Source: Candidatus Methanophagaceae archaeon GoMg1 (GTDB lineage: Archaea; Halobacteriota; Syntropharchaeia; Alkanophagales; Methanospirareceae). From it: DNA of 64,000 bases. The notes beneath the pieces were generated by a model. It saw nothing but the letters and a program-made list of their open reading frames with translations, did no database searches and was not told the origin of the DNA. Both the position numbers and the translations under genes were made by a program. The stretch spans positions 2,483 through 66,482 of the forward strand of contig QBUL01000189.1 of assembly GCA_013180605.1 (NCBI GenBank), read 5' to 3'. Below are positions 6,019 to 60,774 of this stretch, one piece after another; within the stretch, counting starts at the first letter, position 1; every line of letters starts with the position of its first letter.

Positions 6019-7209
6019 ATGAGAGATAAATTACTTATGGCGTACCGGAGCATAAGGGAAAGACGAACTCGCTCGATACTCACCGTGCTGGGTATCGCGG
6101 TGGGAATAGCGGCTATCGTTTCTTTGATGAGCGTTGGCTATGGTATGGAGGAGGCGATAACAGGTGAATTGACGGGGTATGCTGATTTCATCGGGGTGTT
6201 TCCAGCAAAAATAACTGGTACGACCTACGTGGAACTGGGGAGTTTTACTGATAGAGATTTAAAAGACGTGCAGCGGATAGGCGGTATAAAGGAGTTCTCG
6301 GCAATGACGTTCGACTCCGCAGAAGTGGAATACAGGAACAAAAGAGTGCCCATTTTTTTCATCAGTGGTGATACTAAGGAGCTGGAGAGCATGTATGTGG
6401 AGCCCGTAGGGCTCAAGGAAGGGCGGTGGCTCAGAGAGAATGATTATAAAGGCTGCGTCATTGGAGACCGGGTAGCCAATGACTACTTCGATGAAGTTGT
6501 ACACGTGAACGATAAGCTGATAATAAACGGCGAGAAATTTATTGTCGTTGGTGTTTTTGAAAAGGCAAGCACGCTGTATGCCTCTGACATAGATCCTTAT
6601 ATTTTCCTCACGTTGCGTGCTACAAAGGAAGCTCTGCAAACTGATGAGATAAATTACATCATGGTACGGGTCTATGACATAGAGGAAGCGGAAGAGATAG
6701 CAGAGGAGATCAAGGAAGCGATAAATGACAATCATGGACTCGATGATTTCGCCAACGCAATGACGATGGGTAGCATGATAGAAATGATGGGGGATGTTTT
6801 TAATATTATACGTGGCGTTCTGGTTGGAATAGCGGCAATTGCACTCGTTGTTGCATCCATTGGTATCATGAACACGATGTTGATGTCTGTAATGGAGCGT
6901 ACGCATGAGATCGGTGTGATGAAGGCAATCGGTGCGAAGAGCAGCGATGTCCTCTCTCTTTTCCTATTAGAATCGAGTATGGTGAGTCTGGTGGGCGGTG
7001 TGGTTGGCTGTGTACTGGGCGCTGTGGCGGCGAAAGTCATCAGTCTCGGTGCAGGCACTGCATTGGGGATTGAATTTGGTGCGGTTGTAAAACCCGAAGT
7101 GTTACTTGGCGGCATGGTAGTTGCAATGGTTGTGGGCGTTCTAGCAGGGTTCTATCCCGCGCGTAAGGCGTCAAGAATGAGTCCGGTCGAAGCGGTGAGG
7201 CACGAATAA
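6019..7209 (+). CDS. ABC transporter permease, FtsX/MacB-like (N-terminal TM, large extracytoplasmic domain, C-terminal 3-TM FtsX module)
   Basis: 'NTMLMSVMERTHEIGVMKAIGA' FtsX motif; C-terminal 'PARKASRMSPVEAVRHE'. Confidence 0.85.
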   Translation: MRDKLLMAYRSIRERRTRSILTVLGIAVGIAAIVSLMSVGYGMEEAITGELTGYADFIGVFPAKITGTTYVELGSFTDRDLKDVQRIGGIKEFSAMTFDSAEVEYRNKRVPIFFISGDTKELESMYVEPVGLKEGRWLRENDYKGCVIGDRVANDYFDEVVHVNDKLIINGEKFIVVGVFEKASTLYASDIDPYIFLTLRATKEALQTDEINYIMVRVYDIEEAEEIAEEIKEAINDNHGLDDFANAMTMGSMIEMMGDVFNIIRGVLVGIAAIALVVASIGIMNTMLMSVMERTHEIGVMKAIGAKSSDVLSLFLLESSMVSLVGGVVGCVLGAVAAKVISLGAGTALGIEFGAVVKPEVLLGGMVVAMVVGVLAGFYPARKASRMSPVEAVRHE

Positions 7210-7236
7210 ACCTTCTTTCTAAAGAAAGAAGCTTTA
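7203..7236 (+). terminator. Perfect palindrome CTTCTTTCTAAAGAAAGAAG immediately after the permease stop codon
   Basis: Seen directly. The same hairpin family recurs at 8466-8530 and 54797-54835. Confidence 0.5.
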
Positions 7237-7279
7237 TCAAGAAAGATTGTTTTTGCAAAGCAAAAAAGGGTGTTGAGCA

Positions 7280-8467
7280 ATGAAGGATGCATTTCTGTTA
7301 GTATATAGGAACATGAAGGAGCGAAAAGCTCGGTCTGCACTCACGGTACTGGGTATTATGGTGGGCATAGGCGCCGTAATCGCATTAATGTCCGTTGGCT
7401 ACGGGATGCAGGAATCAATAACAGGTCAGCTCGTTGAGATGGCAGATGTCATTATGGTAATGCCGATGAGGATGGAATTAGGCAGCATTGGCGCATTTGG
7501 CAGCTTTACCGACCGTGATCAGGAAGCGGTGAGGCGGATAGGAGGTATAAAAGATGCTGTGGCAATGAGAGGCGAGATGGAAGAAGTAGAATACAAGGGC
7601 GAAAAGTTCATGGTGCATGTCATTGGTACAGACCCCAAAGATGTAGGTGCGCTATTTGGAGCGATAGTGAAGCCAGAAGAGGGAAGATACTCAAAGGCAA
7701 ACGACCACAAAACATGCACCATCGGGTACAGCATTGCTAATGATTACTTCGATGACGAGATTGGAGTTAACGATAGGCTCACGATAAATGGCAGTAAGTT
7801 CAGGGTCGTTGGGGTATTGGAGAAGCAAGGAGGGTTCAGGTCCGAAACGGATTCGGAGATATACGTAACGGCACGAGATTCGGTGAGTATTCTCGATAAC
7901 GAGGATATTTCGGAAATCTTCGTGCGTGTGCGGAATATAGGCGAAGCGGAGGAGATAGCGACGGAGATAGAGGAGCGGATAGATGACAATCACAAGCTGG
8001 ACGATTTTACGTCTGCAATGACAATGGGAAGCGCGATAGAGCAGATGGAGTCCATCTTCGGGATATTGCAAGCGGTTTTAATCGCCATCGCGTCTATTTC
8101 ACTTATCGTTGCTGCAATGGGGATAATGAACACGATATTGATGTCGGTGATGGAGCGTACGCATGAGATTGGCGTGATGAAAGCAATCGGCGCGAAGAAC
8201 AGGAATATTCTTTTTCTGTTCTTACTCGAAGCTGGAGTAGTGAGTGCAATAGGAGGCGTGTGTGGCTGTATTTTCGGCGTGATTGGCGCTCATGCTATAA
8301 GTTTCGGTATACATACGGCGTTTGACGTGGAAATCGCAGCGATTGTGAAACCCGAAGTTCTGCTCGGTGCGGTAGTGGTTGCGATGCTTGTGGGTATTCT
8401 ATCCGGGTTGTATCCCGCGAGGAAAGCGTCAAAGATGAGTCCTGTTGAGGCGGTGAGGTATGAGTAA
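7280..8467 (+). CDS. ABC transporter permease, FtsX/MacB-like (paralog of the preceding gene)
   Basis: Collinear paralog: 'NTILMSVMERTHEIGVMKAIGAKN' and 'PARKASKMSPVEAVRYE'. Confidence 0.85.
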   Translation: MKDAFLLVYRNMKERKARSALTVLGIMVGIGAVIALMSVGYGMQESITGQLVEMADVIMVMPMRMELGSIGAFGSFTDRDQEAVRRIGGIKDAVAMRGEMEEVEYKGEKFMVHVIGTDPKDVGALFGAIVKPEEGRYSKANDHKTCTIGYSIANDYFDDEIGVNDRLTINGSKFRVVGVLEKQGGFRSETDSEIYVTARDSVSILDNEDISEIFVRVRNIGEAEEIATEIEERIDDNHKLDDFTSAMTMGSAIEQMESIFGILQAVLIAIASISLIVAAMGIMNTILMSVMERTHEIGVMKAIGAKNRNILFLFLLEAGVVSAIGGVCGCIFGVIGAHAISFGIHTAFDVEIAAIVKPEVLLGAVVVAMLVGILSGLYPARKASKMSPVEAVRYE

Positions 8468-9507: not shown

Positions 9508-9585
9508 CATAGCACAGCGCCGCATACTATCATGCACAAAATTCGTGGGATTTTTTAACAGACATCGAGAAAATAGACAAGAAAA

Positions 9586-9720
9586 AATAAATTGTTGACA
9601 CAGATTAACGCAGATTAACACAGACAGATGATAAAAATCAACACGGTTAAACTAAAATAAATCTGCGTAAATCAGTGTAAATCTGTGTCTTAAATAGAAA
9701 GAAGTTACACTTTATAACTA
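9586..9720 (+). promoter_or_regulatory. CAGATTAAC cassette, followed by a TAAATAGAAAGAAGTTACACTTTATAA promoter motif
   Basis: The element reads TTGACA-CAGATTAAC-g-CAGATTAAC-a-CAGA…AAATCTGCGTAAATCAGTGTAAATCTGTGTC. About 90% identical to 13766-13880. Confidence 0.8.
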
Positions 9721-9722
9721 CA

Positions 9723-10418
9723 GTGAAACGTAAAGTAATATTAAAATTAGGTGGCAGTCTGATAGAAAAATCACGGGACATCCTGCGGGTTCTTGTAGAT
9801 TATGCCCGTGAGCGTGATGGAGATAAAAATGGAGATTTCACCCTGGTACTGATTCCCGGTGGTGGACCTTTTGCTGAAACGGTAAGAAATATCTCTGCGA
9901 CTATGTCAATACCCGATGAAACAGCACATTGGATGGCTGTTCTCGCAATGCACCAGTATGGGCTTTTTTTGGCTGCTTGTAGCGGAGGTGAAGCCGGGAT
10001 ACCTTTGGTCGAAAGCGAGGATGAGGATGAAATAGACTGTGCTGGACCGATATGCATATTACTGCCCTATAAGATTCTAGAACAGGATGATTGCTTACCT
10101 CATACCTGGGACGTCACGTCGGACACGATAGCTGCGTTTGTCGCAAACAGGCTGGGTGAAAAAAGATTCATAAAATTGACCGATGTAGATGGAATACGTG
10201 ATAAAAAGAGCGGGCATCTTATCGAAAAAATCCGGGCGAACGAGCTGGCGGGGGAACAGGCAGCTGGTCTGAATTGTATTGATGCGGAGCTTCCAGGATT
10301 TTTAATGCAGACCAAAATGAGCTGCATTATTGTAAACGGCAACTACCCAAACAGGATAATAGATGCAATCGAGGAGAAAGAGAACGTGAACAAGACGGTC
10401 TGCACAAAAATCTTTTAG
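9723..10418 (+). CDS. Amino-acid-kinase-family protein (UMP-kinase / MfnE / isopentenyl-phosphate-kinase-like). GTG start. Exact substrate not assignable.
   Basis: 'VILKLGGSLI' phosphate loop, 'LIPGGGPFAE', and 'HTWDVTSDTIAAFVANRLGEKRFIKLTDVDGI' resemble the archaeal UMPK/IPK fold. There is no ProB-type 'VSSGA' motif. Confidence 0.65.
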   Translation: MKRKVILKLGGSLIEKSRDILRVLVDYARERDGDKNGDFTLVLIPGGGPFAETVRNISATMSIPDETAHWMAVLAMHQYGLFLAACSGGEAGIPLVESEDEDEIDCAGPICILLPYKILEQDDCLPHTWDVTSDTIAAFVANRLGEKRFIKLTDVDGIRDKKSGHLIEKIRANELAGEQAAGLNCIDAELPGFLMQTKMSCIIVNGNYPNRIIDAIEEKENVNKTVCTKIF

Positions 10419-11335: not shown

Positions 11336-11379
11336 ACCAGAGATGTTTATATTTTTTCTGTTATATAATACTTTCGTTT

Positions 11380-11430
11380 TTATTGTATATAAAGTGTAAC
11401 TTCCCTCTGTTTGAGACACGGATTTTTTCT
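11380..11430 (-). promoter_or_regulatory. tfb promoter carrying the same extended motif, TCTCAAACAGAGGGAAGTTACACTTTATATACAAT (on the minus strand)
   Basis: Reverse complement of 11388-11425 matches the cassette's 3' motif. Confidence 0.6.
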
Positions 11431-12990: not shown

Positions 12991-13145
12991 GATAGCGGTT
13001 TGGCGGTTTAGACGGTTAGCGGATTGCTCAAAAGCCCTGAAACCTAAAACCGGACACCTGTTTGGTCTGTGTTAATTAAGCCCTTTCGGGGCTTGCGGGA
13101 ATGTGGGCAGAGCTCCCTTAGCGTTCATCCGTGTCAACAATTTAT
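12991..13145 (+). repeat. Composite of three repeat families: internal fragment of the MITE-like element, inverted hairpin module (13062-13110), inverted start of the CAGATTAAC cassette (13110-13145)
   Basis: 'gcggtttggcggtttagacgg' matches 18945-18975. 13062-13110 is the reverse complement of 1676-1725. 13113-13142 is the reverse complement of 'aaataaattgttgacac(a/g)gat'. Confidence 0.7.
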
Positions 13146-13684: not shown

Positions 13685-13765
13685 AAACTTTTTCTTATTT
13701 ACTTTACGATATACTAATTATGTATTTACCCAAATATTTTTGTGTTAGCAGAACGAACGGAAATA

Positions 13766-13880
13766 AATTGTTGACACAGATTAACGCAGATTAACACAGA
13801 TGATAAGAATCAACACGGTTAAACTAAAATAAATCTGCGTAAATCTGTGTCTCAAATAGAAGGAAGCTATACTTTATATA
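13766..13880 (+). promoter_or_regulatory. CAGATTAAC cassette, followed by a TCAAATAGAAGGAAGCTATACTTTATATA promoter motif
   Basis: Near-identical to 9586-9720. Confidence 0.8.
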
Positions 13881-13882
13881 CA

Positions 13883-15142
13883 ATGAAAAAGGGGCACATA
13901 TCAAAAATGACGAATAACACGATATATATCATTGACGTCACAAACAGAGACGGTGTGCAGACATCGAAATTGGGCTTAGCGAAGTTAGAGAAGACCATGC
14001 TGAACCTTTACCTGGATGAGATGGGTGTCTTCATGAGCGAGTTCGGTTTCCCAGTCACGAGGCACGAGACGAACTATTTGAATGCCAATCTGGCGTTAGC
14101 AGAGATAGGTGCTCTGAAACGCATACGACTTAGCGGGTGGTTGAGAGCAATAAAGGGGGATGTCGAAGAAGCTTTTCGATTGGTGCCGAAACTGAAGCAC
14201 GTTAATTTGAGTATATCAACATCTAAACAGATGATAGAGGGCAAATTCAGGGGAAAATTCGGCTGGAAGGACATAATAAGAGAGATGTGCGAGGCAGTTG
14301 ATGCAGCGAGGGAACACGGTGCAGAGACTATTGGAGTCAACGCAGAAGACGCTTCGAGGACAGAACTCGAACGGCTGATAGAATTTGCCGAAGCTGCAAA
14401 ACAGCATGGTGCAGACCGGATAAGATACTGCGACACGCTCGGCTATGACGACTCGTTCACCATTTACGAGCGAGTAAAAGCACTCGCAGAGGCGGTGTGT
14501 ATTCCCATCGAACTGCACTGTCACAACGATTTGGGTATGGCAGTCGCCTGCTCGATTGCGGGCGCCAAAGGAGCAATGGATGCGGGTGTTGATGCGTACA
14601 TTAACACCACGATTAATGGACTGGGCGAGCGAGCTGGTAACGCAGACCTGGTTTCGACAATACTCGCGGTAAAGAAAGCAAGTGGTTTTGAACACAAATA
14701 TCGGTTACAGGAGGTAGATTTAAGCCACGCATGGCGGATCTGCAACTACGCTTCTCTTTCTTTTAGCGTCCCTATCCCGGTCAACCAGCCTGCGGTAGGC
14801 GATAACGCCTTCGCCCATGAATCCGGGATACACGTTGATGGGACGTTAAAAGACAGTAGAAATTATGAACTGTATGACTACACAGAAGTAGGCAGAGGGC
14901 ATATCGAGCAGATTGAGACGGGTAGGCTTATAACAACGGGAGAATATTCGGGAATAAAGGGGTTCAAGAACGTGGCAGGTAAATACGAGTTGGAATTCCG
15001 AGATGACAAAGAAGCTCGTGAAATACTAGAACTCGTGAGGTATGCGAACGTCCACACACAGAAGCCTGTGACGGAGGACGAAATGAAGTTCATTGCAAAA
15101 TACCCGCAGCAGGCAAGAAAGATTATGTCGGTGCAACCATAA
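13883..15142 (+). CDS. LeuA/NifV-family acyl-CoA:2-oxoacid condensing enzyme; candidate Re-citrate synthase given the aconitase + IDH genes immediately downstream
   Basis: 'DVTNRDGVQT' and 'HCHNDLGMAVA' HMGL-like motifs. Start ambiguous: 13847, 13883 or 13907, depending on which TATA-like octamer is used. Confidence 0.7.
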   Translation: MKKGHISKMTNNTIYIIDVTNRDGVQTSKLGLAKLEKTMLNLYLDEMGVFMSEFGFPVTRHETNYLNANLALAEIGALKRIRLSGWLRAIKGDVEEAFRLVPKLKHVNLSISTSKQMIEGKFRGKFGWKDIIREMCEAVDAAREHGAETIGVNAEDASRTELERLIEFAEAAKQHGADRIRYCDTLGYDDSFTIYERVKALAEAVCIPIELHCHNDLGMAVACSIAGAKGAMDAGVDAYINTTINGLGERAGNADLVSTILAVKKASGFEHKYRLQEVDLSHAWRICNYASLSFSVPIPVNQPAVGDNAFAHESGIHVDGTLKDSRNYELYDYTEVGRGHIEQIETGRLITTGEYSGIKGFKNVAGKYELEFRDDKEAREILELVRYANVHTQKPVTEDEMKFIAKYPQQARKIMSVQP

Positions 15143-15321
15143 ACATAAATCTCAATGTCAAATACTACCAAATCCCAAGTAAATCCCAATTTCCAAATCC
15201 CAAAGAGAAAGGATAAATTGTGGTATATCTTTTTACAAAAGAAGGAGAAGAAAATAGAAAGGCAACAACCTTTTTATTTAAGCCCACCACTTTAATTATT
15301 GTGTAGAAAAAACAAGATAAA

Positions 15322-15534
15322 ATGAGGACTTATATCTTTAAGGTGGCAATTGAACCGGATGATGATAAGTGGGTTGCTTACTCCCTGGAACTCAAAGACA
15401 GAGGAGGAGCAACCTGGGGTGAGACCAAAGAAGAAGCATTAAATAATTTACAAGATGTAATTCGGTTAGTCATTGAAGATATGGAGGAATGCGGAGAGTT
15501 ACCCTCTTTTGAATCGGAGATTTTCTTTTCATAA
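15322..15534 (+). CDS. HicB-like (UPF0150) antitoxin-fold protein, orphan
   Basis: 'VAYSLELKDRGGATWGETKEEALNNLQDVIRLVIEDMEE' matches the HicB N-domain pattern. No HicA partner detected. Confidence 0.45.
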   Translation: MRTYIFKVAIEPDDDKWVAYSLELKDRGGATWGETKEEALNNLQDVIRLVIEDMEECGELPSFESEIFFS

Positions 15535-15690
15535 AGGAAGCCAGACTTTCAGTCCTAAAATCCTCAAAATTATGATTGAGGACCAGGCAAGATGGAGTGA
15601 AGATGATTTAAAGTGCTTAAAAATACTGAAATAAAAATAAATATCGAAAAAGTAACATATACGATTGATTTAAATTATGGAGTGATTAAT

Positions 15691-17628
15691 ATGTCTGGAA
15701 CAGTTGCAGAAAAGATAATTAACGAGCATATTGTAGATGTAGAGGGAGAAATAGTGCCTGGAGAAGAGGTTGCTTTGAAGATTGACCAGACGCTTACCCA
15801 GGATGCAACGGGTACAATGGCTTATCTGCAGTTCGAAGCTATTGGTATACCAAGGGTGAGAACAGAACTGAGCGTTAGTTATGTTGACCACAACACGCTG
15901 CAAACAGACTTCAAAAACCCTGATGACCATAGATACCTTCAATCCATAGCTAAGAGATTCGGTTTGTATTTCTCCCGCCCCGGTAATGGTATCTGTCACC
16001 AGCTCCACCTGGAAAGATTCGCCTGTCCGGGCAAGACGCTGATTGGTTCTGACAGCCACACACCTACGGCGGGTGGTATAGGTTCGTTTGCCATAGGCGC
16101 GGGTGGTCTTGACGTGGCGGTCGCCATGGCAGGTATGCCGTACAGAATAAAGTATCCAAAGATTACGGGTATAAAACTTACAGGAAAACTTCCTGATTGG
16201 GTCTCAGCTAAGGACGTCATACTGGAGGTTCTTCGCAGGATAGACGTCAAAGGCGGAAGGGGGAAGGTGCTGGAGTATTTTGGTCCCGGAGTTAAGACGC
16301 TTAGCGTACCAGAGCGAGCAACAATAACCAATATGGGCACTGAAACAGGAGCGACGACGAGCGTATTCCCGAGCGATGAAGTGACACGGAGCTTCATGGA
16401 AGCACAGGCACGTGGCGACCAATGGGTTTCGCTTGAAGCCGATGCAGATGCAGGATATGACGAAATCATAGAGATTGACCTGAGCGAAGTAGAGCCACTG
16501 GTTGCTATTCCTCACAGTCCGGGGAACGTCAAGCCGGTGAGAGAGATTGCAGGAATGGATGTGCAGCAAGTAGCGATTGGCTCGTGTACAAACTCCTCGT
16601 TACGCGACCTCAAAAAGGTGGCAAATATACTGAAAGGGCATACGATTGCGGATAACCTGCATCTTACTATAAACCCGGGTTCGAGGCAGGTGGTAGAGCA
16701 CCTCATCGAGAGCGGTGAGATGCGGTATCTCGTAGCTGCGGGTGCACGGATACTTGAAAACGCCTGCGGTCCTTGCATAGGTATGGGCGCCGCACCATCT
16801 TCGCAGGGCATATCTATACGAACGTTTAACAGGAACTTTGAGGGCAGGAGCGGAACAAAGGACGCAGAGATATTTCTTGTAAGCCCTGAAGTCGCAGCAG
16901 CTACGGCAATTAACGGTGTTCTTACAGACCCACGGGACCTCGGCGATTGCCCTCAGATAGAGATGCCTCGGCGGTTTATAATCAACGACAACATGTTTTT
17001 ACCGCCACTTCAATCAGAGCAGCATCTAGCCAATTTAGTAGAGATTATGAGGGGACCGAACATTAAGCTACTGCCGGATTTCCCGCCATTGCCTGATACG
17101 CTTAAGGGCGAAGTGCTCATTAAGGTTGGGGATAATATCACTACCGACCACATCATGCCTGCTGGAGCGAAAATCCTCCCGTTGAGGAGCAACATACAGG
17201 AGATATCGAAGTATGTTTTTGAGGCGGTTGACCCCGGTTTCCCCTCAAGGGCTCTGGACCGGGGTGGTGGATTCATAATAGGTGGTGAGAACTACGGTCA
17301 GGGCTCAAGCAGAGAACATGCCGCACTTGCACCCAAATATCTGGGCGTTAAGGCGGTAATTGTCAAGTCTTTCGCTCGCATCCATCTCGCGAACTTGATA
17401 AACTTCGGAATAGTGCCTCTGACATTTAAAGATCCAGCGGGCTACGATTCCATAGACCTGGGGGATAAGTTAGAGGTTATTATAGGAGAATTGCGGGACG
17501 ATGTCGGACTCAGGAATCTGACAAAAGGGGATGAAATCGAACTTACACACTCCCTTTCACAACTTGATGCTGAGATATTGAAGACCGGAGGTAAACTGCC
17601 CTGGGTAAAGGCAAAGGTTGGAAAATAA
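15691..17628 (+). CDS. acn: Aconitase-family hydratase (aconitate hydratase, ~650-aa single-chain type)
   Basis: 'GICHQLHLERFACPGKTLIGSDSHTPTAGG' and Fe-S ligand Cys in 'IGSCTNSS' and 'NACGPCIGMG'. Swivel domain 'GGENYGQGSSREHAALAPKYLGVKAVI'. Start set at MSGTVAEKIINEH; the ORF track begins at 15613. Confidence 0.85.
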   Translation: MSGTVAEKIINEHIVDVEGEIVPGEEVALKIDQTLTQDATGTMAYLQFEAIGIPRVRTELSVSYVDHNTLQTDFKNPDDHRYLQSIAKRFGLYFSRPGNGICHQLHLERFACPGKTLIGSDSHTPTAGGIGSFAIGAGGLDVAVAMAGMPYRIKYPKITGIKLTGKLPDWVSAKDVILEVLRRIDVKGGRGKVLEYFGPGVKTLSVPERATITNMGTETGATTSVFPSDEVTRSFMEAQARGDQWVSLEADADAGYDEIIEIDLSEVEPLVAIPHSPGNVKPVREIAGMDVQQVAIGSCTNSSLRDLKKVANILKGHTIADNLHLTINPGSRQVVEHLIESGEMRYLVAAGARILENACGPCIGMGAAPSSQGISIRTFNRNFEGRSGTKDAEIFLVSPEVAAATAINGVLTDPRDLGDCPQIEMPRRFIINDNMFLPPLQSEQHLANLVEIMRGPNIKLLPDFPPLPDTLKGEVLIKVGDNITTDHIMPAGAKILPLRSNIQEISKYVFEAVDPGFPSRALDRGGGFIIGGENYGQGSSREHAALAPKYLGVKAVIVKSFARIHLANLINFGIVPLTFKDPAGYDSIDLGDKLEVIIGELRDDVGLRNLTKGDEIELTHSLSQLDAEILKTGGKLPWVKAKVGK

Positions 17629-17637
17629 ATAGAAAAA

Positions 17638-18849
17638 ATGACAGATAAAATCCAGATGAGGACCCCATTAGTGGAAATAGACGGAGACGAGATGACAAGG
17701 GTAATGTGGAGCATGGTAAAGGAGAAACTTCTTTATCCCTACATTGACCTCAAAACCGAGTACTATGACCTTGCTCTTGAAAAGAGGGACGAGACCGAAG
17801 ACCAGATAACCATAGAGGCAGCAGAGGCGATAAAGAGGTATGGCGTGGGTGTTAAGTGCGCCACAATAACACCAAATGCAGCAAGAGTCACGGAATACAA
17901 CCTGAAGCAGCAGTGGAAGAGCCCAAATGGCACAATCAGAGCCATTCTGGATGGTACTATTTTCAGGCAGCCTATAATGGTGCGGAATGTAAAACCCGCG
18001 GTAAGAAACTGGAAAAAGCCAATAATATTGGGCAGGCATGCCTACGGCGATGTGTATAAGAATGTCGAGTACAGGATTAGCGGTCCAGGGAAGGCAGAGA
18101 TGGTGTTCACGCCCGAGAACGGTGAGGAAGTTAGGCACACAATACATGACTTCAATGGGTCTGGCATAATACAGGGGATACACAATCTTGACGGCTCAAT
18201 AAACAGCTTTGCCGACACCTGCTTCGCTTACGCTCTCGACCAGAAAGTGGACCTATGGTTCTCTACAAAGGACACCATATCCAAGACATACGACAATAAT
18301 TTTAGGGAGATATTCGAGAAGGTCTATGAAGAGAAGTACAAGGGTAAGTTCGAGGAGGTGGGAATAACATACTTCTATACGCTGATAGACGATGCCGTAG
18401 CAAGGATAATCAGGTCGGAGGGCGGCATGCTCTGGGCGTTGAAGAACTATGATGGCGATGTAATGTCGGATATGCTTGCCTCGGTTTTCGGGAGTTTAGC
18501 CATGATGACCTCGGTCCTGGTATCGCCACACGGCTACTTCGAGTATGAAGCGGCACACGGTACGGTGCAGAAGCACTACTACAAGCATCTCAAGGGCGAG
18601 AAGACATCTACTAACTCCATTGCACTCATATTCGCGTGGAGCGGTGCGTTACGAAAGCGCGGAGAACTGGACGGCATACCTGAGCTTGCAACGTTCGCAG
18701 ACAAATTAGAAGCTGCTGCTACGGGCACAATAGAAGACGGTATAATGACTGGCGACTTGGCAAAACTGGCTGAACCACCTGCGAAGCGAGTGGCGAATAC
18801 GGAAGAGTTCATGGAAGAGGTAAAGACGCGGCTCGATAATGTGCACTAA
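17638..18849 (+). CDS. icd: NADP-dependent isocitrate dehydrogenase (eukaryotic IDH1/2-like subfamily)
   Basis: '[24 protein letters not shown]' and '[21 protein letters not shown]'. Starts 10 bp after the aconitase stop. Confidence 0.9.
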
Positions 18850-18900: not shown

Positions 18901-19040
18901 CTTGACAATGCCAGATTAACCGCAGAGTTCACAGAGAGTGCAGGAGATGGCGGTTTGGAGGTTTAGCGGGTTAGAACGGACTAACACAGGATACCTAACA
19001 CCTAATTCCCTCTGCAGACTCTGCGTTCTCTGCGGTGAAT
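18901..19040 (+). repeat. MITE-like element with terminal inverted repeats (TTAACCGCAGAG…CTCTGCGGTGAA); flanked by degenerate CAGATTA motifs at 18871-18900 and an inverted CAGATTAAC doublet at 19092-19122
   Basis: About 85% identical to the reverse complement of 53627-53754. Related copies at 21451-21586, 30033-30136, 31055-31219 and 60634-60774. Confidence 0.75.
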
Positions 19041-19575
19041 TTTGAAATGCGACACTGTCAAATTAACTCTAACATTATTGATTCTGACTGTCAATCTGTG
19101 TTAATCTGCGTTAATCTGTGTCATCAATTTATTTTTTCAGATACGTTGCCGCGATCCCAAATCAGTGTGCCTGTCTCATGGACACGCTATTCAAGCGAGC
19201 AAGGAGATTCTTCACGGTTGATGCACTGTGACGGCTTCCATTGTAGACAAAATAAAGTCGTAAGCTAAGTTAAGTTTCTTTATCTCCATGGGAAGAGGAT
19301 GGTCCTGGCGCCATTTTTTTTTTGGTAGAGTGTGTCGTCCTGTTCGGCGCTCAGATCAGCGACACATCCACTGGCATGGCCAATAATGAGCTTAATGGCA
19401 CCAATATTGCATAAGAAGGGCATTTAAGCTTACAGTTGATGATATGTAGGTGGCACATCTAATTCTGTTCAGGTGTTTATAATAAAGGAATAAATTATTG
19501 TGGGTCCAACGACATTGCCTAAATCAAAATATTCGCTAGTTTTATAAGGAATAAAAGCGATATTAACAAGTAAAT

Positions 19576-21450: not shown

Positions 21451-21586
21451 TTACCGCCGAGATCACGGAGAGCGCTGAGATGACGTGAAGGTATGAGTTG
21501 TAAGTAAGCCAAACTCCTCAAACCTGAACCCTCAAACCTCACACCTACGCTGACTCTCTGTGTTCTCTGCGGGCTTTGCGGTGAGT
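21451..21586 (+). repeat. MITE-like element, subfamily with internal 'aaggtatgagttgt' and 'aacct-aaacct' tracts
   Basis: TIRs 'accgccgagatcacggagagcgctgag' and 'ctctctgtgttctctgcggg…gcggtgag'; close relative of 60634-60774. Confidence 0.7.
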
Positions 21587-21602
21587 AACAAGTACAAAAA
21601 TT

Positions 21603-24667: not shown

Positions 24668-24775
24668 TTCTTGTTGTATATAAGGTATAACTTCTACTTA
24701 TCCAAGACGCAGATTTACACTGATTTAATTTCTTCTGCGTTAATCAGCGTTAATCTGTGTCAATAATTAATTTTA
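24661..24775 (-). promoter_or_regulatory. Inverted copy of the CAGATTAAC cassette. Its promoter motif (reverse complement of 24661-24700: ATCTGCGTCTTGGATAAGTAGAAGTTATACCTTATATACAAC) points leftward into the 3' end of the DNPH1-like gene and toward the U32 gene.
   Basis: Reverse complement of 24700-24775 is 'ttgacacagattaacgctgattaacgcag…aatcagtgtaaatctgcgtc', the cassette consensus. Confidence 0.6.
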
Positions 24776-24945
24776 GTTGGATATTATGCTTTCTTGTTAT
24801 TGGAGATGGACGGTATTTTTCAGAAAATATCTCATACATAATCATCGCTAACCTTTTTCTCGCTTCAGCTAAATCGAAGTCATATTCCTTTTCTTTTTCT
24901 TTATCTACAACTAATACCTATTCCTTTTTACTTTTAGATTCCTTT

Positions 24946-28107: not shown

Positions 28108-28402
28108 TGCCGAAGCACCTGTAAATGTTCCTTTTTTCTTTAGTAAAAGTTTCTTTTTTTGTATCTAATCAGGTTTTTAAAGTTTTTCTTTTTTGATAAA
28201 ATAGCGGTTTGCGAAATTATCTCGTTGTATATAATGTATAGCTTCTTTCTATTTAGAGGATTTTGATTTACTCCTTGTAATAGTCTCTTCTCTATATACT
28301 TTTGTGGTATTTTCACTCGTTTTTGGGTTCCTTTTTTTCAGCCCAGAATGAAAAATAGTGTGTGATAATCGTTAAAAAATCTAAAACAATCGTTTTATAA
28401 TT

Positions 28403-30032: not shown

Positions 30033-30136
30033 AAATATAGTGATTTATCACCGCGGAGAGCGCCGAGTCCGCAGAGTTTTAAGACTGTTTCAATCGTTGC
30101 TCGTTTTTTCTGGTGCCTCTGCGTTCTCCGTGTGCT
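30033..30136 (+). repeat. MITE-like element (subfamily with internal 'cttaagactgtttcaatcgttgctc'), with shared 5' flank 'aaaat(a)tagtgatttatcaccgc'
   Basis: TIR 'tcaccgcggagagcgccgag…ctctgcgttctccgtgtgctctgcggtga'; paralog of 31055-31219. Confidence 0.75.
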
Positions 30137-30214
30137 CTGCGGTGATTTTTGAGGATATAGCAATTTCACTGAAAAATTTGACAGTGCCGTCAGGTGGTAA
30201 AAACGGATAAATAA

Positions 30215-31054: not shown

Positions 31055-31219
31055 CTAAAAATCAAGTGATTTATCACCGCCGAGATCGCAGAGACCACAG
31101 AGTCTTAAGACTGTTTCAATCGTTGCTCAGATTTTCTGACACAGATTTACACTGATTTACGCGGACTTATATCTGTGTCTATAATTTATGTCTCTGCGTT
31201 CTCCGTGTGCTCTGCAGTG
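31055..31219 (+). repeat. MITE-like element with a nested CAGATTA-type element ('tgacacagatttacactgatttacgcggacttatatctgtgtc') inserted in its middle
   Basis: Same ends as 30033-30136, with a ~55-bp insert at 31137-31190. Confidence 0.7.
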
Positions 31220-31280
31220 AAATTTAAGGATATATATAGCAATTTCGCAGATTAAGAATAGGGCGATTGCTCGCCCATTC

Positions 31281-32196
31281 TCATCTCAGAACGGTACGTG
31301 AAAGTTTCCCCTCATACCGCTCAAGCATTTCATAACCCTTTCTGTATCGGGCAGCAGTTTGGTTCCGTGGCATTTGGTCTTTTGATTTTAGTTTAACTGC
31401 TCTTGTAATTCTGGCTTGCAGCCTGTTAACATGTTTTTCAGCCTTTTTCCAGTCGATATCCATCCACCTGATTTTTGGTTGAATGTCTGTAAGTCTCTCG
31501 CCTATTGTAGGCGTAATTGAACTACTTACATTCACAGGTTTGCCTCCATGCATACAATGAAACACCTTTCGGTAAGTCAGCACCCTTTCGAGTTAGGGCA
31601 AATTTTGAACCCCTATACGCCTCATTACAAGATGTCATTCGCTTTTTACCGATTCCTCTACCCTATATGCCATCGTTTACCCTTACGAGGTCCCTACCCA
31701 GCGATTCCGGGAGCATATAGGGCTTACCAAGTTCTACATCGCAGATAACTATGAACGCCTTAGAAGCCATCTGTGAGCCGAGAACCGTTTGTCCATCCAC
31801 CATAACGTCCCAGTAGCCGTTATGGCCTGATTCCGCACCTTTTGGTCTAAGCGTATCAACCCAATTTCGCTTATTCTAATTTACGACTCCCACAATGGTT
31901 CGCATTACACTCTTCATAGCGTTCTTATCCTGGCAGTTGATCTGAGCTGGGTTCTCGGATTTTTCCACGTTGTCCTGCAAGCTTACCACGCAAGCGTTAC
32001 CCCCGGCGTGTTCCGCAGTAGGATTACCCCTGATGGATGGGGTAGCCACAAAGCAATCCGCGATGCAACTTCTTGTCAACAAACTGGAAAATTAGATAGT
32101 GCCAGAAACTTTAGCTTACGACCTTACGACCGTGCTATTCTTTGGGGTTAGTTGTCCTCTGGCGGAACTGGGATACAACCCTGAGAGGATTCGCCG
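31281..32196 (-). mobile_element. 5' portion of a group II intron (RNA domains I-III plus the first ~100 codons of the intron-encoded reverse transcriptase), truncated at its 3' side
   Basis: ORF 31281..31583 (minus): '…IDWKKAEKHVNRLQARITRAVKLKSKDQ' is the conserved N-terminal 'W..I.W…V..LQ.RI..A' segment of group II IEPs. The ~600 nt upstream (minus orientation) is structured non-coding RNA-like sequence beginning near GTGACG at 32196. Confidence 0.5.
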
Positions 32197-36134: not shown

Positions 36135-37175
36135 TCACGCTTTCCTTCTGTGCCTAAGCACCAAATACGCAACTGCAAGGAGTCCAGCAATAGCAAAAAC
36201 GGCTTCAAATCCTGGTGTTGGAGTTGGCTGAGGTGACACTGTTGGAGTTGGCGTGGGAGATGGAGTTGATGGTGGACCCGGCGAAGGCGCTACAATCACA
36301 CTTGGCGTTATTGTTGATAGAGGCGTGGGCATAGGGGAGAGGGTTGGTGTGGGGGTTATAACGGGCGTAGGAGTTGGCGCTGGCGTGGTGTCTGGTGCTC
36401 CACTTCCATCCTTTCCCCCGCCATCTCTACCATCAGATGACGGTGTTGATGTAGGAGAAGGCATTGGACTCGGAGAAGGTGAAGAGGTTGGAATTGGTGT
36501 GGGTTCAGTAAGAACAATTTTAACTGTCCTTTCTATTCCTCCAGCAGTAATCAAAAATTCACCAAGAGGGACACCCCCTGTATTTATGTCAAGTTCAAAA
36601 TCACCATTTGAATCAGCATTGACTTTAATCGACATGCCAGTTGTCAGGATTACAGAAGTTGCCTCATCTGCTACCGCACCGTATACCTTAACATTTCTCT
36701 TGCCCTCGATATCGATTGTATCCCCTAAAATTGATAACGGAAGCGAAATAGAAAGTGTAGCAATACCATTCGTTGCTTTTTTGGGTCCTTCTAGGGGGTA
36801 TTTAAATGTCCCAAAGCCAAGAATTGGTATCGGGCCTAATGAAACTCGAATATCTTTTATATTCTCAGCAGTTACAGAAAATCTTTTTTCACCAGCAGGG
36901 AAGTGAATGTCATTGAATTCACGAGCATATTTAGCATCTGATACAGGTAAAGAAATCACAAATGATGATTTTAACCATACCTCTTCGTTTGGCGATGCCT
37001 TCCCTGATATTGATAACGTCTCACCTTGTACAACTATTTGAGGGTTTACATTCAGTCCAGTTACGCTTGCGCCAGAAATTGTTACAGAAGCTATACCAAT
37101 AAACGCACAGAGTAACAACAGACCAATGCAAGATGCTACTTTAATATGTTTCATGTTCATCTCCATCTCAATCAC
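36135..37175 (-). CDS. Cell-surface (S-layer-like) protein with a Pro/Thr/Ser linker and a PGF-CTERM archaeosortase sorting signal
   Basis: C-terminus 'PTPTPGFEAVFAIAGLLAVAYLVLRHRRKA' (PGF, then TM, then a basic tail). Linker 'TPIPTSSPSPSPMPSPTSTPSS…PTPTPVITPTPTLSPMPTP'. Confidence 0.7.
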   Translation of the reverse strand: MIEMEMNMKHIKVASCIGLLLLCAFIGIASVTISGASVTGLNVNPQIVVQGETLSISGKASPNEEVWLKSSFVISLPVSDAKYAREFNDIHFPAGEKRFSVTAENIKDIRVSLGPIPILGFGTFKYPLEGPKKATNGIATLSISLPLSILGDTIDIEGKRNVKVYGAVADEATSVILTTGMSIKVNADSNGDFELDINTGGVPLGEFLITAGGIERTVKIVLTEPTPIPTSSPSPSPMPSPTSTPSSDGRDGGGKDGSGAPDTTPAPTPTPVITPTPTLSPMPTPLSTITPSVIVAPSPGPPSTPSPTPTPTVSPQPTPTPGFEAVFAIAGLLAVAYLVLRHRRKA

Positions 37176-37202
37176 TCCTAATCAATTTGTCATTATAGCT
37201 TA

Positions 37203-38348
37203 TTAATATAATATTTTAATAGCTGGAATCCAATCATAATATACCTTTCCATTTGCAGCCTCGAATTGTGTGCATGTGATTGTTCCCCCGGTCACATTTG
37301 CCGTGCGTTCATGTATGATTTGTGGATAAGAGCCTGTGTGAATGGTGTAGTTGTATGTTTCCCCTGCATCGAGCGTAATTTCATCAAAAGTTATATTATG
37401 CCAATCTCCTCTATATCCAGTACAATTTGCTTCTACAATAACTCGGGTATCATTCCAGATTTTTACTCGTTCTGTGTGCCCACCTGTACCTGGACATGGA
37501 TACGTATATAGTTTGGATACCGTAATTGTTTGATTTGGCTTTATTGTCCCGTGGTGTGTTCCACAGATACTGGGATAAGGATTTTCTGGCGACCCTGTAT
37601 CGAATACTGGCGTTGGTATAGGTGGAGTTGGTGTAGGAGAAGGCGTTGGACTTGGAGAAGGTGGGGTGGTTGGAGTTGGTGTGGGTTCAGTAAGGACAAT
37701 GCTAACTGTCTTTTCTATTTCACCCGCGGTTATAAAAAATTCACCCGTCGGGACCCCCTCGGTAGTAATATTGAGAGAAAAATCACCGTTTGAATCGGCG
37801 GTGACTTTGATTGACATATTAACATTCAGGGTTACAAAATTTGCATCCTCTGCTACATCTCCATATATCTTAACGTTTTTTCTGTCATTGATATTAATAA
37901 TTATATTCTCCCAGGTTATCGGAAACGAAATAGAAATAGTGGCGGTGCCATTAGTTGCTTTCTTAGGTCCTTCCAGAGGATATTTAATGGTCTGTCGGAA
38001 TACCGGACTTAATACTATTCGAATATTTTTTATATTCTCAGCGGTTACAGAGAATGCTTTCTCACCAGCAGGGAAGTAAATACCATTGAATTCACGAGAA
38101 TATTTAGCATCAGAAACAGGTAAAGAAATCACCGATGATGAACTTATCCATATCTCTTCGTTTGGCGATGCCTTTCCATATATTGATAACGTCTCACCTT
38201 GCACAACTACTTCTGGGTTTACATTCAGTTCAGTTACATCTGCACCTGTGATAGTGATAGTTATGAAAAATGCAAATGTGAACATCAACGCTAAAGCAAA
38301 TATGGTAAAAATCCCATTTTTTTTCTTCATCTCTATTCTTTTCTTCAT
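37203..38348 (-). CDS. Cell-surface protein paralogous (N-terminal ~230 aa) to 36135..37175, but ending in a soluble 'ETYNYTIHTGSYPQI…WIPAIKILY' domain instead of PGF-CTERM
   Basis: 'NVNPEVVVQGETLSIYGKASPNEEIWI' vs 'NVNPQIVVQGETLSISGKASPNEEVWL'. Its C-terminal domain is shared with 32821..34719 and with the pseudogene at 54849. Confidence 0.6.
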   Translation of the reverse strand: MKKRIEMKKKNGIFTIFALALMFTFAFFITITITGADVTELNVNPEVVVQGETLSIYGKASPNEEIWISSSSVISLPVSDAKYSREFNGIYFPAGEKAFSVTAENIKNIRIVLSPVFRQTIKYPLEGPKKATNGTATISISFPITWENIIININDRKNVKIYGDVAEDANFVTLNVNMSIKVTADSNGDFSLNITTEGVPTGEFFITAGEIEKTVSIVLTEPTPTPTTPPSPSPTPSPTPTPPIPTPVFDTGSPENPYPSICGTHHGTIKPNQTITVSKLYTYPCPGTGGHTERVKIWNDTRVIVEANCTGYRGDWHNITFDEITLDAGETYNYTIHTGSYPQIIHERTANVTGGTITCTQFEAANGKVYYDWIPAIKILY

Positions 38349-53678: not shown

Positions 53679-53754
53679 TAGCTGTTCTAAACCGCTAAAC
53701 TGCTATCCTCTGCGCTCTCTGTGAACTCTGCGGTTAACCGGCTGGTATTGTCAA
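53627..53754 (-). repeat. MITE-like element (inverted relative to 18901-19040); its left end supplies the rlmE stop region
   Basis: Reverse complement is ~85% identical to 18901-19040. Confidence 0.75.
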
Positions 53755-53834
53755 GTTAAATAACTACGTAGGAAGTTATACATTATGCACATTAATAAGC
53801 AAAAAGGCTAAGGGGGATATTATTACGGATAAGA

Positions 53835-60633: not shown

Positions 60634-60774
60634 CTACCGCCGAGATCACGGAGAGCGCTGAAATGACAGAAGGTATGAGTTGTGAGTTGTCAGATGTGAG
60701 TTGTGAGTAGCCCTGGAATGGAACCTAAAACCTCGCACCTATACTGTCCTTCTGTGCTCTCAGCGGTAAACAAG
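60634..60774 (+). repeat. MITE-like element (same subfamily as 21451-21586)
   Basis: Shared 'accgccgagatcacggagagcgctga(g/a)atgac…aaggtatgagttgt' and 'aacctaaaacct' tracts. Confidence 0.7.

Follow-up and report, generated by a model that had tools for sequence, protein, structure and literature searches.

Citrate (Re)-synthases (Re-CS) belong to the LeuA superfamily and stand in for the Si-type citrate synthase. The enzyme of Clostridium kluyveri, CKL_0973, was reportedly described by Li et al. in 2007, while C. acetobutylicum is said, after Amador-Noguez et al. in 2010, to carry the genes for its synthase, aconitase and isocitrate dehydrogenase (IDH) in that order (CAC0970-0972), and the Re-CS of Dehalococcoides strain CBDB1 (cbdbA1708, EC 2.3.3.3) reportedly goes back to Marco-Urrea et al. 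in 2011. The Dehalococcoides enzyme is listed among the experimentally validated activities of D. mccartyi (PMC4720418), and Re-CS are known to split into distinct clades that are routinely misannotated as homocitrate synthase (HCS), a further type being that of HM1_2993, Teth514_0415 and the 'AksA' of C. difficile (PMC12016533). For anaerobic methanotrophic archaea of group 1 (ANME-1), only an oxidative partial tricarboxylic acid (TCA) route to 2-oxoglutarate has been described, with no citrate synthase recognised (Chadwick et al. 2022, PMC9012536). Here we describe a gene cluster from an ANME-1 archaeon, Candidatus Methanophagaceae archaeon GoMg1, located in a stretch of 64,000 nucleotides of contig QBUL01000189.1 (positions 2,483 to 66,482; hereafter, the window). 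Judging from its sequence, the first gene of the cluster most likely encodes a Dehalococcoides-type Re-CS, which would feed 2-oxoglutarate synthesis by way of the aconitase and the NADP-dependent IDH encoded downstream.

The first gene (13907-15142, plus strand; 411 aa) had been placed in the LeuA family by a preliminary description of the window, and the motifs on which that assignment relied, RDGVQ and HCHNDLGMAVA, were both read in its product. Pfam recognised in the protein an HMGL-like domain (PF00682, 160 bits) followed by HCS_D2 (PF22617, 40.5 bits) and nothing further, and its fold is fixed by homology to the solved structures of isopropylmalate synthase (IPMS) and HCS (E=1e-38). It passed none of the NCBIfam cut-offs. 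The reference Re-CS sequences, both characterised and proposed enzymes, were taken from Table S1 of PMC12016533, and among them the validated Dehalococcoides enzyme, CAI83711 (cbdbA1708), proved to be a close homolog, with 61.5% identity over 403 aa (493 bits, E=6e-178, BLASTP). The identities to the HM1_2993, Teth514_0415 and C. difficile type were 35-38%, and those to the type of C. kluyveri, C. acetobutylicum, C. thermocellum and Syntrophus were 24-28% (about 27% for CKL_0973 and CAC0970). The transcribed CAI83711 sequence itself found its best matches in Dehalococcoidia loci (66-74%), as expected.

In a neighbour-joining (NJ) tree, CAI83711 nested among the relatives of the window protein, with bootstrap values of 77/100 for the subclade and 94/100 for the family as a whole, and this family was set apart from NifV, LeuA, CimA and the other Re-CS types. 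Its members share the signature DVTNRDGVQT in the place where IPMS, HCS and NifV carry DTTLRDGEQ; the alignment columns D10, V11, T12, N13, D15, V17, Q18, T19 and H204 were invariant, and H206 was nearly so. The motifs of the superfamily (RD, AEDASRT, HxHND, NGxGERAGN and HESGIH) are kept across the family, and the window protein retains the metal and catalytic motifs R14-D15, E147, H204/H206, GERAGN and H304-ESGI-H309. The separation also showed when 1.84 billion representatives were searched with HMMER: no full-length member of the family scored below 259 bits, and no other full-length LeuA/NifV relative above 200. Ten representatives of 50%-identity clusters had uninformative member names, all of them being metagenomic, and one database source calls a member of the clade (P0370) 'Citrate (Re)-synthase'.

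The likeness to the CBDB1 enzyme thus extends from clade membership to length (about 410 aa) and to the motifs DVTNRDGVQT, HCHxDLG, NGxGERAGNADL and FAHxSGIH. That enzyme is likewise annotated as 'homocitrate synthase', and other Dehalococcoidia orthologs adjoin aconitase-family and Iso_dh genes. The differences lie in the host, which here is an archaeon, and in the neighbouring genes, which encode a fused mitochondrial-like aconitase and a subfamily II NADP-IDH instead of a LeuCD-like pair and a prokaryotic-type Iso_dh; moreover, the window enzyme is known from its sequence alone. The gene would be a new archaeal member of an enzyme kind already known, as is the Dehalococcoides-type lineage itself.

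Other lineages were tried and rejected. The C. kluyveri CKL_0973 type, whose members share 49-65% identity with one another, has the same expected reaction, but it carries the motifs DTTFRDGQQ and HGHNDF, measures about 450 aa and forms a separate deep branch, and the window protein falls outside it. Similarly, the HM1_2993 type resembles the window protein in its NifV-like nature, its 'homocitrate synthase' label and its length (about 380-410 aa), yet it keeps the canonical DTTLRDGEQ and branches elsewhere in the tree, with NifV-like sequences. Membership among NifV, LeuA or CimA was rejected on cut-offs, identity and the NJ tree. The Re-CS reading of the preliminary description is accordingly supported, both by the identity to a validated enzyme and by the synteny described below, whereas the precedent that it invoked, C. 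kluyveri, has to be replaced by the CBDB1 type, an independent Re-CS lineage.

The start of the gene also had to be moved. The preliminary description placed it at 13883, but homologs of the protein are 411-413 aa long and begin with MT(K/N)N..IYIID, matching ATG 13907; homology at the DNA level to the closest genome sets in at 13904; and ATG 13883 belongs to a repeat insertion specific to the lineage, in which it follows a TATA-like box by 3 nt. On these three grounds the start was set at ATG 13907, and the upstream ATG is unlikely to be the true one.

The two enzymes encoded downstream were identified as well. The second (acn, 15691-17628, plus strand; 645 aa), preceded by a Shine-Dalgarno-like GGAGTGAT upstream of its ATG, is an aconitate hydratase of the fused, mitochondrial-like type, scoring 963 bits against a cut-off of 612 with PRK07229 and 938 against 719 with TIGR01342 (NCBIfam). 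Its translation contains GSCTN and CGPCIG, the motifs of the three cysteine ligands of a 4Fe-4S cluster, and among solved structures mitochondrial aconitase (361 bits) ranked above homoaconitase/isopropylmalate isomerase (250 bits). The third (icd, 17638-18849, plus strand; 403 aa) is an NADP-dependent IDH of the homodimeric subfamily II, with 653 bits against a cut-off of 335 for PRK08299 and homodimeric NADP-IDHs as its best solved relatives (top PDB entry 4aou, 658 bits). Since the equivalog cut-offs were passed and the solved-structure searches agreed, the two neighbours are not look-alikes of leuCD and leuB. The aconitase is 95-96% and the IDH 93-94% identical to the orthologs of two related ANME-1 loci, L001 and L009. 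As had been reported, icd starts just after the acn stop codon, the spacer being 9 nt, and the four plus-strand open reading frames (ORFs) claimed for the cluster were all found in the ORF listing and the family scans.

The best genome match to the window was Methanophagales archaeon CSMAG_2436, collinear with it and identical at 94% of protein and 89-97% of DNA positions. Further matches to the first-gene protein came from a metagenome-assembled genome labelled Methanosarcinales (91%), from Syntrophoarchaeum (84-85%) and from ANME-1 GoMg2 (79%), while the bacterial members, at 62-72% identity, were mostly from Omnitrophota, Dehalococcoidia and Gastranaerophilales, with single loci in Planctomycetia, Elusimicrobia and others. 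A synteny scan of 88 related loci, performed with split queries and loosened cut-offs, revealed an aconitase-family gene beside the ortholog in 22, and in 15 of these an Iso_dh gene as well. The arrangement of ortholog and aconitase gene recurs in Dehalococcoidia, Omnitrophota, Gastranaerophilales, Elusimicrobia and Thermodesulfobacteriota, and in Syntrophoarchaeum the Re-CS-type gene lies directly upstream of a prokaryotic-type IDH gene. Four ANME-1 contigs (L001, L009, L091 and L092), with two different upstream neighbourhoods, showed the order Re-CS, Acn, AclB, AclA, IDH.

Many of the bacterial loci (L014, L017, L020, L047-L049, L053, L054, L071, L078, L085 and others) carry, after the ortholog, a two-subunit LeuCD-like aconitase-family pair and a prokaryotic-type Iso_dh, as against the fused aconitase and subfamily II IDH of ANME-1, and the pathway module seems to have come together on more than one occasion. 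In one bacterial lineage, with an ortholog 73% identical, a class I/II aminotransferase gene stands immediately before the Re-CS-type gene (L006, 1-1784; L007, 4981-7448); this neighbour may link the Re-CS-type gene to aspartate/oxaloacetate or to glutamate.

Taken together, the three enzymes suggest the following pathway. The Dehalococcoides-type Re-CS would condense acetyl-CoA, supplied in these archaea through the methyl branch and CO dehydrogenase/acetyl-CoA synthase, with oxaloacetate to give citrate; the aconitase would turn citrate into isocitrate, and the NADP-IDH would yield 2-oxoglutarate and NADPH, for glutamate and tetrapyrrole synthesis. As a DRE-TIM metallolyase, the Re-CS would hold a divalent metal at Asp15, His204 and His206 that binds the 2-oxo acid, in this case oxaloacetate, and the enolate of acetyl-CoA would attack its Re face, a mechanism that we take from IPMS and HCS relatives of solved structure and from family knowledge. 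An enzyme of the Dehalococcoides type would also be oxygen sensitive and dependent on Mn2+ or Co2+. We infer from sequence which substrate the window enzyme uses and with what stereochemistry, as well as the direction of flux and the transcription of the genes. The stereochemistry has consequences for labelling. By established stereochemistry, the acetyl carbons end up in C1/C2 of 2-oxoglutarate with a Re-CS, but in C4/C5 with a Si-citrate synthase or with the pro-S-specific ATP-citrate lyase (ACL).

The published source of citrate in ANME-1 is precisely a reversed ACL, and the cluster of that scheme, which has the aconitase, the IDH and the host group in common with the window, is the one found in L001, L009, L091 and L092; its authors themselves called such a reversal 'not typical' (Chadwick et al. 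2022, PMC9012536). The scheme includes no citrate synthase, whereas in these contigs a Re-CS-type gene leads the cluster, and in the window aclBA is missing. In the four contigs the aclB-aclA pair lies between the aconitase and IDH genes (L001, 6725-9872; L009, 10426-13576; L091, 12382-15536; L092, 7997-11142); in the window, the 3.2-kb aclB-aclA segment of L009 and L001 is replaced by the 9-nt spacer (junction 17628/17638), so that the window either lost aclBA or never had it at this site. AclA and AclB of a relative, used as tblastn queries, gave no match in the window, and neither a Citrate_synt nor an ACL domain was detected in 40 ORFs that lie elsewhere in it, all but one of which reach 150 aa, in agreement with the earlier statement that it holds no Si-citrate synthase gene.

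These observations bear on the possibility that citrate is formed in vivo mainly by a reversed ACL encoded elsewhere in the genome, the LeuA-like enzyme being auxiliary or something different. The published proposal speaks for it. Nonetheless, the absence of aclBA from the locus and from the whole window, with acn and icd kept 9 nt apart, and the fact that in all ANME-1 loci with ACL the cluster begins with the LeuA-like gene make this alternative improbable. Because a Re-CS-type gene heads the same cluster, and because the cluster of the window lacks aclBA, the gene is a candidate for a simpler citrate source than a reversed ACL. For ANME-1, probably Syntrophoarchaeum and the other archaea that carry the gene, we lean slightly towards citrate being made by a Dehalococcoides-type Re-CS hidden so far behind the label 'homocitrate synthase', and not by a reversed ACL. 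If so, the window would show the conserved Re-CS, Acn, AclBA, IDH cluster in a form that naturally lacks aclBA, ACL would be dispensable for the oxidative branch, and the glutamate of ANME-1 biomass would be labelled in the Re-type manner, with the acetyl carbons in C1/C2.

A Re-CS at the head of the cluster would provide a conventional, strongly exergonic entry to the oxidative branch. It would also correct a widespread misannotation, as homocitrate synthase is the name given to hundreds of orthologs in archaea and bacteria, and it would shift the position-specific 13C pattern expected in glutamate-derived biomass, which matters for isotope work on carbon assimilation in methane-oxidising consortia. 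This would be an incremental correction of the reconstruction of central metabolism, not a new kind of system. Full-text literature searches returned no report of Re-CS in ANME-1, the Re-CS literature examined concerns no ANME, and searches for Re-CS in Methanosarcina or for an ANME-1 citrate synthase together with ACL gave nothing relevant.

Very improbable, in our view, is that the first gene encodes an HCS, either AksA, which would use the 2-oxoglutarate produced next door for coenzyme B synthesis, or NifV, serving the nitrogenase cofactor. Nearly all the relatives are named 'homocitrate synthase' or 'NifV' in public sources, nifV_homocitr (TIGR02660) was the best NCBIfam match, the HCS_D2 domain is present, and an ANME archaeon needs coenzyme B, for which the adjacent IDH makes 2-oxoglutarate. 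The nifV_homocitr score, however, was 265.5 bits against a cut-off of 462.9, and the identity to a genuine NifV (that of H. modesticaldum) was 33.5%, compared to the 61.5% to the validated Re-CS. Furthermore, the clade is common in bacteria, such as Dehalococcoidia, Omnitrophota and Gastranaerophilales, that use the locus for neither coenzyme B nor the iron-molybdenum cofactor, the neighbours are aconitase and IDH genes and not aksDEF or nif genes, and the name itself is a documented misannotation of Re-CS (PMC12016533). Scarcely credible is an IPMS or citramalate synthase of branched-chain amino acid synthesis lying beside TCA genes by chance, for, in spite of its LeuA family membership, matches to several IPMS models at E values of about 1e-50 to 1e-67 and the label 'isopropylmalate/homocitrate/citramalate synthase' that JGI gives to some homologs, the protein scored far below the cut-offs of all IPMS and citramalate synthase models (227 bits against 517 for the best IPMS model, 98.8 against 450 for citramalate synthase), lacks in its 411 aa the C-terminal LeuA regulatory domain (Pfam), is 31.6% identical to LeuA and 27% to CimA, did not cluster with these enzymes in the tree, and shares with its orthologs a synteny with aconitase and IDH genes that recurs across phyla.

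Several points weigh against the assignment of the first gene to Re-CS and its place in the pathway. Few residues can switch the substrate specificity of LeuA-family enzymes, so that 61.5% identity is not proof of function, and the archaeal members of the clade are known from sequence alone. The reference sequences were machine-read from a PDF, with a few single-residue dropouts, and the tree was distance based (Kimura distances, 100 bootstraps). In 66 of the 88 related loci the clade member has no adjoining TCA genes. Most ANME-1 relatives carry ACL in the same cluster, which gives them a second route to or from citrate, and the absence of gltA and aclBA covers the 64-kb window alone, the genome beyond which may carry either. 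Finally, an insert of 496 bp may uncouple the first gene from acn and icd.

This insert (15144-15639) was evident from the comparison with L009, in which homology to the window stops at 15143 and restarts at 15640; beyond its first 31 nt it matched none of the related loci examined. The gap between the first gene and acn is 55-77 nt in L009 and L001, and 55-190 nt across the related ANME-1 clusters. Within the insert lies the orphan hicB-like ORF of the preliminary description (15322-15534, plus strand; 70 aa), which was confirmed. It matches PHROG 497, 'HicB-like' (E=1.1e-7), and remained below the Pfam thresholds (HicB_lk_antitox, 23.2 against 27; DUF7387, 24.8 against 27.9). No hicA partner was found near it in any frame, and the related loci contain no HicB-like homolog. 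The claim that the cluster forms an operon is uncertain for the window, as the insert, with its T5 tracts (at about 15229 and 15271), parts the first gene from acn-icd, and the genes of the three enzymes may or may not be transcribed together. The first gene would probably have its own promoter, provided by an inserted cassette, and acn-icd may be either read through from it or initiated inside the insert. No RNA families were detected by Rfam in the region from 13 to 19 kb.

The cassette in question is a modular intergenic repeat (13757-13891, plus strand) with arms GACACAGATTAACGCAGATT and AATCTGCGTAAATCTGTGTC followed by a promoter-like module, AAATAGAAGGAAGCTATACTTTATATAC. Such cassettes are built of inverted-repeat arms made from CAGATTAAC units, a sequence found 10 times in the window compared to 0.74 times expected, and then of a TATA-containing module usually aimed at the downstream gene; the arms fold as a hairpin (-29.7 kcal/mol, z=-6.7). 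The conserved promoter-like end module, AGAAGGAAGYTATACWTTATATAC, also occurs in solitary form upstream of the TFB gene and others. At this site the cassette is missing in L009 and L001, where the spacer between the CMP kinase and Re-CS genes measures about 55 bp, compared to 222 bp in the window, and the copy at 13757-13891 is a recent insertion, absent here in the closest genomes. L009 has its copies at other sites, one of them in the stretch from aclA to icd, which marks the cassette as a mobile element, resembling a miniature inverted-repeat transposable element, and one that by its module would bear a promoter. The preliminary description had the cassette drive the operon; for the first gene such a role is plausible, given the TATA-like box at 13872-13879, 27-35 nt ahead of ATG 13907. 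The position of the box fits an archaeal promoter and, from the usual geometry of such promoters, a near-leaderless mRNA for the first gene.

Besides the near-identical full copy at 9581-9729, other full or partial copies of the cassette are present in the window at 606-646, 1638-1833, 19063-19138 (minus strand), 24669-24778 (minus strand) and 31126-31170, and the promoter module alone at 11377-11425 (minus strand), 28220-28255 (minus strand) and 53770-53798. A 53-nt element recurs in inverted orientation at a distance of 11 kb, the two copies being 94% complementary; one is at 1674-1726, inside a cassette copy, and the other at 13061-13113, just past the CMP kinase gene. A second GC-rich intergenic repeat family, CTCTGCGTTCTCCGTGTGCTCTGCGGTG-like and TACCGCCGAGATCACGGAGAGCGCTGA, was located at 19007-19052, 21553-21598, 30114-30159, 31189-31234, 53705-53750, 21452-21484 and 60635-60667.

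Among the other features of the window, two pairs of tandem duplicates were observed, namely, two MacB/FtsX-type permeases (6019-8467, plus strand), about 69% identical, and two PGF-CTERM surface proteins (36135-38348, minus strand), whose repeat blocks are 77-83% identical. Group II intron domains were recognised by Rfam on the minus strand at 31252-31324 and 31951-32044 (RF00029, 55 bits; RF02012, 37.9 bits), with no ORF of at least 150 aa between them, and the region 31252-32044 may thus contain an ORF-less group II intron.

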